From: Escherichia phage KS_A8
Reading direction: 5' to 3' (one strand)
DNA: 59,853 nucleotides
Sequence record: PP627279.1
Below the pieces are notes generated by a model. That model worked only from the letters and a program-made list of their open reading frames with translations, did not search any database and was not told the DNA's origin. This document shows positions 21,891-22,598 of the stretch, piece by piece (the first letter of the stretch is position 1; each line of letters starts with the position of its first letter). The translations under genes were made by a program, and so were the position numbers.

Positions 21891-22598
21891 ATGTCTGACA
21901 TGACTCTTTTACCTACTAATCTCGGTGGCGACGGTTTCGGCGGTGAAGCTGGTGCGGCTGGTATCGGTGGCGCGATCGGTGGCTTAATTGGTTCCTGGAT
22001 CGGTAATGGTTGGGGTGGCAATGGTGGTTGGGGTGGTCGCGGTAACTTCGCTGGCCCGGTGGAAGTGCAAGCTTCTGTTGACACCAACGCAATTCTGCAA
22101 GCTATCAACAACGGTACTCTTCAGACCATTCAGGGGCAGAACGGTACTAACCTGACTGTTGAGCGCTCCGCTGCTTCTACCTATAACGGCATCACTCAGC
22201 AGAACACTCAGAACATGCTGGCTTCCGTTCAGGGCTTTGCTGGTCTGAACACGCAAATTCAGGGTGGCACCAGCCAAGTGCTCGCGGCTCTGTGTAGCAA
22301 CGAAGCGGCTAACATTACCCGTTCTTTCCAGGCCCAGTTAGCAGCCGAGAAGTGTTGCTGCGAAACCAACCTGAACATTGAGCGTCAAGCTGAAGCTACC
22401 CGTGCGCTAATCCGTGACCAGCACGCACAGGCGCAAGCAGTTCTGATCTGTGACCTGAAGTCCCAGTTGCAGGAAGCTCGCTTTGCAAACTCCCAGTTGG
22501 CACAGACGGCTGGTCTTACTTGTAAGATCAATCAGGTTGAGCAGTTAGTTAACTTTAAACTGCCAACTCCTCCAACTCCTCCGACTGGCTGCTGCTAA
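21891..22598 (+). CDS. glycine-rich / cysteine-cluster protein (unknown function)
   Basis: Start placed at ATG 21891 (RBS GGAGA); upstream part of the track ORF overlaps the terminator. Gly-rich N-terminus (GGDGFGGEAGAAGIGG...GWGGNGGWGG), C-terminal KCCCETN and PTPPTPPTGCC. Confidence 0.4.
   Translation: MSDMTLLPTNLGGDGFGGEAGAAGIGGAIGGLIGSWIGNGWGGNGGWGGRGNFAGPVEVQASVDTNAILQAINNGTLQTIQGQNGTNLTVERSAASTYNGITQQNTQNMLASVQGFAGLNTQIQGGTSQVLAALCSNEAANITRSFQAQLAAEKCCCETNLNIERQAEATRALIRDQHAQAQAVLICDLKSQLQEARFANSQLAQTAGLTCKINQVEQLVNFKLPTPPTPPTGCC

Follow-up and report, generated by a model that had tools for sequence, protein, structure and literature searches.

The protein considered here is encoded by gene A, a 235-residue open reading frame (ORF) in a stretch of 59,853 nucleotides from Escherichia phage KS_A8 (sequence record PP627279.1; the whole stretch is called the window below), and several described systems resemble it in part. 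Glycine-zipper segments, such as those of the VacA N-terminus, the colicin V core, and SlyB-type lipoproteins, share with protein A the (GxxxG)3 register, the small residues, and a comparable hydrophobicity. However, none of these has the helical rod of 160 residues with a CCC motif to which the zipper of protein A is joined, and no Pfam Gly-zipper family matches it at E values up to 1. Protein A is read here as an elongated helical protein and not as an enzyme; its chain runs from an acidic N-tail through a Gly-zipper and a Gly/Trp-rich interfacial linker to a helix of about 160 residues with the CCC motif and a Thr/Pro-rich tail. Our tentative reading, to which we give a probability of roughly 0.35, is that protein A may be an abundant accessory helical oligomer that would insert into membranes and act with the products of three partner genes, B, C, and D, on the host envelope late in infection.

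A comparable layout is found in the class I fusion protein HA2 of influenza, which also combines a Gly/Trp-rich, weakly hydrophobic N-terminal peptide with a long Gln/Asn-rich helix and Cys residues towards the C-terminus. The best matches of the protein A family profile in the Protein Data Bank (PDB) are all HA2 chains, aligned from residue 1 over the fusion peptide and first helix (hmmsearch, 17.5 bits, E value 0.027). Unlike HA2, protein A has no proteolytic priming, receptor subunit, or C-terminal anchor. Homology was rejected, given an hhalign probability of 2.6% and no match in a Foldseek search of the protein A model against the PDB, and the likeness is treated as an analogy of layout only.

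Among lysis proteins, the i-spanin Rz of phage lambda is likewise a small late protein with an N-terminal hydrophobic segment and a long helical, Cys-bearing body, and gene A, too, has lysis-gene neighbours in some phages. In contrast to Rz, the N-tail of protein A carries no positive charge, its best 19-residue Kyte-Doolittle window (KD19) scores 1.27 against 2.63 for the Rz transmembrane domain (TMD), and its predicted abundance is far higher. Moreover, no lipobox ORF that would encode a cognate o-spanin lies within or beside gene A, the genome in the window has separate i- and o-spanin genes at its right end, and A-bearing genomes already possess spanins of their own. Holins usually have fewer than about 150 residues and mainly one to four TMDs and belong to a lysis cassette, whereas protein A has 235 residues and one marginal segment; a holin is annotated elsewhere in the genome, and true holins follow the gene A cassette in contigs L010 and L043. 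Spanin or holin identity was therefore rejected, since the lysis cassette lies elsewhere and the defining features fail. The receptor-masking and exclusion proteins T5 Llp and T1/phi80 Cor are also products of accessory genes that have their own signals and lie just after the host-recognition gene of a virulent phage. Unlike these, protein A has no lipoprotein signal and does not co-vary with the fibre, and its gene is also found far from fibre genes and has three partners.

Class II microcins are made as small precursors of less than about 120 residues with a double-glycine leader. Protein A is larger (235 residues), and on inspection MSDMTLLPTNLGG lacks the hydrophobic positions that the leader consensus requires. 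The annotated genome of Bas24, a near-identical phage, contains no C39-peptidase ABC exporter or immunity gene, Pfam and NCBIfam reveal no colicin or pyocin translocation, receptor-binding, or cytotoxic domain in protein A, and no immunity or lysis gene adjoins gene A, its neighbours B to D being without such a match. Kinship with colicins or microcins was rejected for want of such a domain, exporter, or immunity gene. Type IV pilin-like and double-glycine leaders were also discarded, as the alignments, by inspection, fit neither.

The Gene A Family

Gene A is a genuine ORF. Residues 1-235 of its product align to positions 1-233 of the 234-position profile PHROG 9288 (E value 3.9e-130), and relatives numbered 170 in a first search and 918 proteins in a second profile search, an exhaustive profile search giving 123 clusters at 50% identity. 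Identity is at least 60% across Queuovirinae, Drexlerviridae, and 9NA-like phages. The family is thus real and under constraint. Profile searches, which the original prediction had named as a check, thus recovered this one family over its full length and nothing significant in Pfam, NCBIfam, PADLOC, or the PDB: the only Pfam match, DUF6160 (E value 0.12), lies under its curated cutoff, NCBIfam and PADLOC gave none, and no solved chain matches in sequence, those of phage virions included.

Annotated carriers of gene A comprise Seuratvirus, Nonagvirus, the 9NA-like phages Sasha, Solent, and PJ16, Hanrivervirus and other Tempevirinae, Yersinia phage P400 and PY100-like myoviruses, eiAU, and phiWae15. 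The "hypothetical protein" entries of CAjan, Seurat, slur01, and 9g-like, 9NA-like, and Hanrivervirus phages (PHROG 9288) are 97-100% identical and belong to the same family, with no function assigned. In bacterial genomes, a search across 185,579 species yielded just two loci, both on phage-like contigs of metagenome-assembled genomes (MAGs), and gene A therefore belongs to virulent phages rather than being a prophage moron. The papers examined on 9g, BASEL, Seuratvirus genomics, the E. coli HS phage, KanT1, and TLS make no mention of gene A, and literature searches turned up no CAjan virion proteome.

The features retained throughout the family are an M-x-D/E-M N-terminus, the Gly-zipper segment followed by a GNGWGG...R linker, a QGF(A/S)GLN motif, ATR and LCD motifs, and a Thr/Pro/Ala-rich tail. 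The CCC motif is found in 192 of 200 full-length members and is invariant in the alignment of closer relatives. The terminal GCC singled out by the original prediction is present in this protein but is not a family-wide trait, being absent from about half of the 200 full-length members; it is clade-specific and coupled to C211, both occurring in 90 members and neither in 83.

The reading frame begins with ATG, preceded at a distance of 8 nt by the Shine-Dalgarno (SD) sequence GGAG (21879-21882). Two longer frames, a TTG-started one of 278 residues and the 265-residue annotation of phage SD04, are not supported, since relatives begin at the conserved MSDM. The opposite-strand Pro-rich and His/Arg-rich ORFs at 21833-22111 (-) and 21916-22092 (-) were set aside as mirror artefacts of GGN/GCN codons. 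The gene is already listed as hypothetical in databases, and the original prediction described it accurately. New here are the mobile four-gene cassette, the codon bias rank, the 5' hairpin, the dispensability and decay of the gene, the transmembrane (TM)-like helices of distant relatives, and the long helices predicted by AlphaFold2.

Organization of Protein A

The gene and the parts of its product are located in the window as follows:

21891-22598, + strand: gene A, encoding the Gly-zipper/CCC protein of 235 aa (PHROG 9288); ATG start, TAA stop
21891-21947, + strand: acidic N-tail (MSDMTLLP...), residues 1-19, without Lys or Arg, from the alignment of relatives
21948-22055, + strand: hydrophobic Gly-zipper segment and Gly/Trp/Asn-rich linker ending in Arg, residues 20-55, from KD19 and AlphaFold2
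22083-22559, + strand: two long Gln/Asn/Ala-rich helices, residues 65-113 and 123-223 (within residues 65-223), predicted by AlphaFold2
22353-22361, + strand: codons of the near-universal CCC motif, C155-C156-C157
22560-22595, + strand: C-terminal tail LPTPPTPPTGCC, residues 224-235, Thr/Pro/Ala-rich as in the family generally, with clade-specific terminal Cys

The long Gly-rich tract of the original prediction was confirmed, with 21 Gly among the 40 residues 12-51 and 32 in the whole protein. Within it, G26, G30, G34, and G38 of AGAAGIGGAIGGLIGSWIG form a perfect (GxxxG)3 register. The KD19 value of 1.27 belongs to residues 20-38; for comparison, identically computed values are 0.61 (HA2 fusion peptide), 1.42 (Gly-rich core of colicin V), and 1.75 (VacA N-terminus). 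Over the family, the median stands at 1.17, and a value of at least 1.6 is reached by 20 of 200 members; these distant relatives have an unmistakable TM-type helix at the zipper position, e.g., ILIILFFLIFGGG, WLWIIVVFALLFGW, WLWIIVVFALLF, or ILIILFFLIF. AlphaFold2 predicts a helix at residues 26-38 at low confidence.

In the preceding N-tail, close relatives all share M1, M4, L6, and P8. The mean net charge of this tail is -1.1 (177 members), an Arg usually follows the hydrophobic segment, and this distribution suggests an N-out orientation, provided that a segment with a KD19 of 1.27, as compared with the 2.63 of Rz, spans the membrane. From the zipper register, the TM-type helices of the distant members, and the acidic N-tail with its downstream Arg, we take the N-terminal element to be membrane-seeking across the family and, in protein A itself, too weak for a classical anchor. 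Thus, the earlier suggestion that the composition recalls glycine-rich translocation or pore-forming segments holds in part: the membrane-interacting look remains, resting on the (GxxxG)3 register, the hydrophobicity, and the TM-type helix of one tenth of the relatives (20/200), whereas kinship with colicin translocation domains or microcins fell away, as set out above, with the missing Pfam and NCBIfam matches, the absence of a cytotoxic, immunity, or exporter gene nearby, and a size too large for a microcin.

The body of the protein was modelled with AlphaFold2 as a monomer from a 38-sequence alignment, with a mean predicted local distance difference test (pLDDT) score of 65.6. The conserved QGFAGLN motif marks the break between the two predicted helices, and a pLDDT above 90 is reached over roughly residues 150-210. 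The cysteine clusters reported by the original prediction are present as well, the eight Cys being C134, C155-157 (KCCCETN), C187 (LICDL), C211, and C234-235 (GCC).

Expression Signals and Codon Usage

The original prediction had located the gene in the late operon, after the tail fibre gene and between two terminators. A gene for a lateral tail fibre of 1034 residues does precede gene A, and terminators flank it on both sides, a strong one upstream and a less canonical one downstream. The term late operon is apt insofar as gene A lies on the same strand as the tail genes and downstream of them, but the gene is insulated by these terminators and has conserved upstream signals of its own. The signals around it are:

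21737-21764, + strand: intrinsic terminator of the tail-fibre transcript, an 8-bp stem with 6 GC pairs plus TTTTTATT (U-run)
21784-21803, + strand: upstream arm pairing with the ribosome-binding region 21869-21887, a possible anti-SD element (RNAfold)
21805-21832, + strand: candidate own promoter, TTGTAA, 16 nt, TATGCT, read from the sequence, with the -10-like box at 21827-21832
21840-21855, + strand: leader hairpin GTAAC-N6-GTTAC, conserved across lineages
22620-22657, + strand: terminator-like hairpin after gene A, a 10-bp stem (22620-22653) followed by UUAA

The upstream terminator has a folding energy of -14.1 kcal/mol (z score -2.3) and is conserved in Bas24 and aaroes. The downstream stem at 22620-22653 appears in both the centroid and the minimum free energy (MFE) structures, and the hairpin is an annotated terminator in the relatives OL960573 and OL960575. 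A sigma-70 scan did not call the candidate promoter at 21805-21832. Its -10-like box reads TATGCT, CATACT, TATTCT, or TATACT in Seuratvirus, Nonagvirus, 9NA-like phages, Hanrivervirus, and eiAU, and seven diverged lineages share a layout consisting of this box, 6-7 nt, the GTAAC-N6-GTTAC hairpin, an A/T-rich spacer, the SD sequence, and the ATG. In the window, TATGCT stands 7 nt ahead of the leader hairpin, which is probably located at or near the 5' end of gene A's own mRNA.

Apart from the leader itself, the pattern GTAAC-N4-8-GTTAC occurs once in the window, at 39873-39889 inside an opposite-strand gene, and upstream of no other gene start. Across 10 lineages every stem position of the hairpin is paired, with AU-to-GC double changes at two pairs, one G-U pair, and the compensatory forms GTAGC/GCTAC and GTGGC/GCCAC; the covariation score was reached by none of 500 shuffles, a result limited by the partial selection of the hairpin sequences with a permissive pattern. 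No Rfam family matches the leader hairpin, which may be an mRNA-stabilizing or regulatory 5'-terminal element.

The leader as a whole is predicted to be strongly folded: RNAfold gave -32.5 kcal/mol for 21770-21895 (z score -4.2), and none of 200 shuffles was as stable. The leaders of L010 and L043 contain perfect anti-SD/SD helices of 13-15 bp. In MFE folds, the SD sequence is paired in 19 of 21 gene A leaders as compared with 22 of 37 other genes; since so many control genes pair as well, SD sequestration is only weakly distinctive, a weak lead, and was dropped as a special feature of gene A.

Codon usage was expressed as the fraction of E. coli optimal codons (Fop), together with a z score corrected for amino acid composition, and was computed on the genes of the window with the standard list of optimal codons. 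The Fop of gene A is 0.72, equal to that of the major capsid protein, while the tail tube gene has 0.62 and most genes fall between 0.44 and 0.56. The corrected excess places gene A second of 34 genes (z score 6.1), after the capsid protein (7.5). Gene A also exceeds its neighbours in Fop in aaroes, YenM_25, and L008. Taken as sequence evidence, these signals point to a separately controlled and very strongly expressed gene.

The A-B-C-D Cassette and Its Genomic Contexts

End-to-end alignment places the window among CAjan-like Seuratvirus genomes (Queuovirinae), with 96-98% identity around gene A. Terminase, portal, capsid, tail, J-like tip, and lateral tail fibre genes follow one another on the + strand, after which 7-deazaguanine and replication genes lie on the - strand, and an endolysin/holin/spanin cassette lies at the right end of the genome. 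The genes around gene A are:

18627-21719, + strand: lateral tail fibre, 1034 aa, with phage_tail_N (1.1e-21) and Peptidase_S74 (9.6e-9) matches in Pfam and a coiled coil
22670-23038, + strand: gene B, 122 aa, with a His/Asp/Glu-rich N-terminal half and a weakly MazG/PRA-PH-like helical C-terminal half, syntenic in all cassettes
23054-23584, + strand: gene C, 176 aa, with a predicted beta-rich core and an acidic tail
23571-23855, + strand: gene D, 94 aa, a small protein, from alignment and synteny
23867-24070, + strand: additional Cys-rich ORF, 67 aa, phrog_25697, with full-length matches only in Seuratvirus-type loci

As judged from genome comparison, gene A leads a mobile cassette of four genes, which occurs in at least four genomic contexts. 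The order A-B-C-D is kept in 29 of 30 loci retrieved from IMG/VR, the 30th (L041) being rearranged, and also in aaroes (Drexlerviridae), in the myoviruses YenM_25 and PY100, in eiAU, in the metagenomic contigs L008 and L010, and in the MAG contigs L042 and L043. In the first context, the cassette stands behind S74-type lateral tail fibres (Queuovirinae, Drexlerviridae, eiAU, L008, and L042); in the second, behind terL in the 9NA-like phage PJ16; in the third, as an isolated + strand island amid - strand genes in PY100-like phages; and in the fourth, directly before a Phage_holin_4_1 holin, a Hydrolase_2 endolysin, or a lysozyme with Rz (L010, L043, L042, and L008).

The partners gave little guidance to a function, and the attempt to derive one from them was abandoned. 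Protein B offers at best a degenerate MazG-like ExxE...ExxD hairpin in its C-terminal half, the acidic residues of which are not conserved; its PRA-PH match (E value 0.011) is below the curated cutoff, and the PDB match 2p06 has an E value of 0.11. The His-rich stretch HHHEHEKEEYKHAHSYARDHEH recurs in most lineages in composition, not in sequence, and short variants of B in L008 and L042 are without it. No structural neighbour was found for either C or D. The fibre gene, whose Peptidase_S74 intramolecular chaperone domain is C-terminal and whose counterpart in Bas24 is annotated as "lateral tail fiber protein", is the upstream neighbour of the cassette and lies outside it. At the other end, the 67-residue ORF also falls outside the conserved cassette, since its matches are confined to Seuratvirus-type loci; its product (MCGNTNRCC...AACNCK), a second Cys-cluster protein at the locus directly after the cassette, has a hydrophobic aromatic C-terminus.

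The distant cassettes are preceded, shortly upstream of gene A, by a gene for a small protein with a TM segment (L008 7502-7795, L010 7352-7660, L042 5255-5494, and L043 4767-5045). Those of L008, L042, and L043 also contain a coiled-coil-like stretch, and none of the four is assigned to a Pfam family.

Dispensability and Decay

Comparison of carriers indicates that gene A is accessory, some phages dispensing with it or holding decayed copies. In Bas24 (SeppeHuegi), codon 83 is changed from CAG to the amber codon TAG (L002 4532-4534, corresponding to 22137-22139 in the window), and this phage is still infective and is a standard, widely used laboratory phage of the BASEL collection. TLS, the type phage of Tlsvirus, is without the cassette although its relatives carry it, and T5-like phages retain gene A alone, usually decayed, behind an S74 fibre and with no B to D. 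The original prediction had suggested a virion-associated or secreted factor; the amber codon, the absence from TLS, the decay in T5-like phages, and the PY100-like and 9NA-like sites outside structural modules together argue, indirectly, against an essential virion part.

Two further observations concern rearranged or shortened copies. In Epseptimavirus, a shortened or unannotated remnant of gene A (L004 4794-5408 and many T5-like genomes) looks like a decaying copy. In Shigella phage 2019SD1 (L041 5236-6201), C and D are inverted and lie directly upstream of the last third of A.

Possible Roles of Protein A

If protein A acts on the host envelope, the following sequence of events can be envisaged. 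Gene A would be transcribed late from its own signals between the two terminators, giving an mRNA with the conserved 5' hairpin, and protein A would build up to amounts near those of the capsid protein. The Gly-zipper would then insert in a membrane and self-associate by GxxxG packing, the target being the cytoplasmic membrane while infection proceeds or, after holin triggering, fragments of the envelope. The helical rod would oligomerize, and the Cys cluster could lock the oligomer through disulfides, upon oxidizing exposure, or through metal binding, while B, C, and D would dock onto the rod. The net effect would be a remodelled or blocked host envelope, useful in nature and dispensable on laboratory K-12; possible benefits include, for example, the exclusion of competitor phages, the tuning or completion of lysis, and the sparing of progeny from debris.

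Several points weigh against such a role on the envelope. No homology ties protein A to a membrane or to a function. Its own zipper segment is marginally hydrophobic, and the Hessa scale (computed by hand from the published values) gives about +4.5 kcal/mol, so that insertion as a classical Sec-type anchor is not expected. Residues 1-64 of the AlphaFold2 model are of low confidence except for the short helix noted above. The heptad signal obtained by simple a/d scoring is weak and its registers shift; a coiled-coil oligomer is not established, and the body is therefore termed "long helices" rather than a canonical coiled coil. Cys parity (even in 110 members and odd in 86) gives no sign of obligatory disulfides and was dropped as uninformative. 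In addition, capsid-like codon bias typifies structural proteins and is usually absent from membrane regulators, the holin and spanin genes of the window having Fop values of 0.44-0.49. Finally, the adjacency to lysis genes may reflect the usual junction between tail-fibre and lysis genes, a gathering place of accessory genes.

The main, if rather unlikely, alternative is that protein A is a non-essential fibre or decoration of the virion, namely an abundant trimeric rod with its conserved N-terminus on the capsid, neck, or tail, cross-linked after release by cystine knots at CCC and the terminal GCC, with B to D as assembly factors. This would account for a codon bias equal to that of the capsid protein and above that of the tail tube, for the long helical rod modelled by AlphaFold2, and for the position next to fibre genes in many genomes. 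It also fits the non-essential nature of gene A, a property known from the decoration proteins Hoc, Soc, and pb10, and the in-frame fusion in Bas22 behind an S74 fibre-chaperone domain. Extracellular fibrous proteins typically have clustered Cys and a Thr/Pro-rich tail, C211 tends to be accompanied by the terminal Cys-Cys, and the Cys-Cys knot of collagen III provides a model for a GCC that ends a Pro-rich spacer. A decoration protein, however, would not usually have the genuine TM-like N-terminal helix seen in distant homologues, the cassette of PY100-like and 9NA-like phages lies away from the structural modules and that of some other genomes falls within lysis modules, and protein A matches no solved virion chain. 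The record of PY100, whose virion proteome is published, does not flag the homologue as structural, which is a weak argument. Thus, a virion component explains the codon bias, the Cys residues, and the Thr/Pro-rich tail better than action on the envelope does, and explains the TM-like N-termini and the non-structural positions worse.

It is more doubtful that the A-B-C-D module serves membrane fusion. By analogy with the class I fusion proteins, protein A might be a fusogen or pore former that arrived convergently at a Gly/Trp-rich peptide, a rod, and a Cys lock in a mobile module. In that case, the holin would arm the protein A accumulated to capsid level, either by collapsing the membrane potential or by exposing the cytoplasm to oxidation.

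The remaining explanations are less likely than action on the envelope or a place in the virion. Assistance of protein A in the trimerization or attachment of the lateral fibre, as a tail-fibre assembly chaperone, seems improbable. Gene A does stand directly downstream of S74-type fibres in Queuovirinae, Drexlerviridae, eiAU, and T5-like phages, helical oligomeric fibre chaperones such as T4 gp57A exist, and both the Bas22 fusion and the label "putative lateral tail fiber chaperone" in Bas22 and PJ16 would agree with such a task. Nevertheless, S74 fibres bring their own intramolecular chaperone and protein A contains no Peptidase_S74, tail-fibre-assembly, or Tfa-like domain (Pfam and PHROG), no fibre gene is near the cassette in PY100/YenM_25, PJ16, L010, and L043, the strong conservation of protein A contrasts with the variation of the adjacent fibres, and Bas24 is infective with gene A interrupted. 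The label itself stems from the upstream domain fused in Bas22 and was apparently copied onto the stand-alone gene of PJ16, and the chaperone assignment was rejected for this reason.

The two annotations differ in arrangement. In Bas22 (KurtStettler; L001 3124-4656), residues 20-235 of A are fused in frame after the Peptidase_S74 domain of a fibre-like protein of 295 residues, and S74 self-cleavage would release a fragment with the whole A body. In PJ16 (L046 3342-4040), a stand-alone gene A after terL is named "lateral tail fiber chaperone", apparently after the Bas22 fusion.

A cytoplasmic metal-binding or redox module, in which the CCC motif of A and the His-rich part of B would sequester metal or deliver it, for instance, to fibre tips, with the Gly-rich region as a flexible linker, appears just as improbable. 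The near-invariance of CCC (192/200), the His/Asp/Glu-rich stretches of B in most lineages, and the positive-inside rule, which would put the rod in the reducing cytoplasm, are consistent with such a module. However, no known metal-binding family matches, the short B variants lack the His-rich part, and the hydrophobic N-terminal helix of the distant members is left unexplained. The least probable explanation, which sharpens the idea of the original prediction, is a released toxin or bacteriocin-like pore former, freed in bulk at lysis to act on neighbouring cells through a Gly-rich region that resembles the colicin V core in composition and hydrophobicity (1.27 vs 1.42), for although the predicted abundance is high and Cys residues could stabilize an extracellular form, protein A is net acidic and has no colicin, pyocin, microcin, receptor-binding, or cytotoxic domain, its genome has no immunity, C39-peptidase, or ABC-exporter gene, and its 235 residues and unmet double-glycine leader consensus depart far from a microcin.

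Significance

Gene A stands above an ordinary hypothetical ORF through its predicted capsid-level expression, its leader hairpin, and its position in a mobile cassette without characterized relatives. The label "lateral tail fiber chaperone", which is spreading in GenBank, is untrustworthy for this family, and phage engineering could make use of the leader hairpin, a candidate element for high expression or regulation. The amber codon of Bas24 provides a ready natural knockout and makes the question of the function of gene A directly testable. Moreover, A-bearing phages are common among phage-therapy isolates and in the BASEL collection, and a conserved four-gene cassette without characterized relatives offers a defined target in the search for a new late function, such as exclusion, an accessory role in lysis, or progeny protection. 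If codon bias and expression signals are a fair guide, protein A would be among the most abundant proteins of Seuratvirus, Nonagvirus, 9NA-like, and many T1-like phages. Should protein A prove to be a fusogen or pore former of this kind, phages of Gram-negative bacteria would possess, in the cassette, a new machinery for remodelling the envelope, completing lysis, or exclusion.

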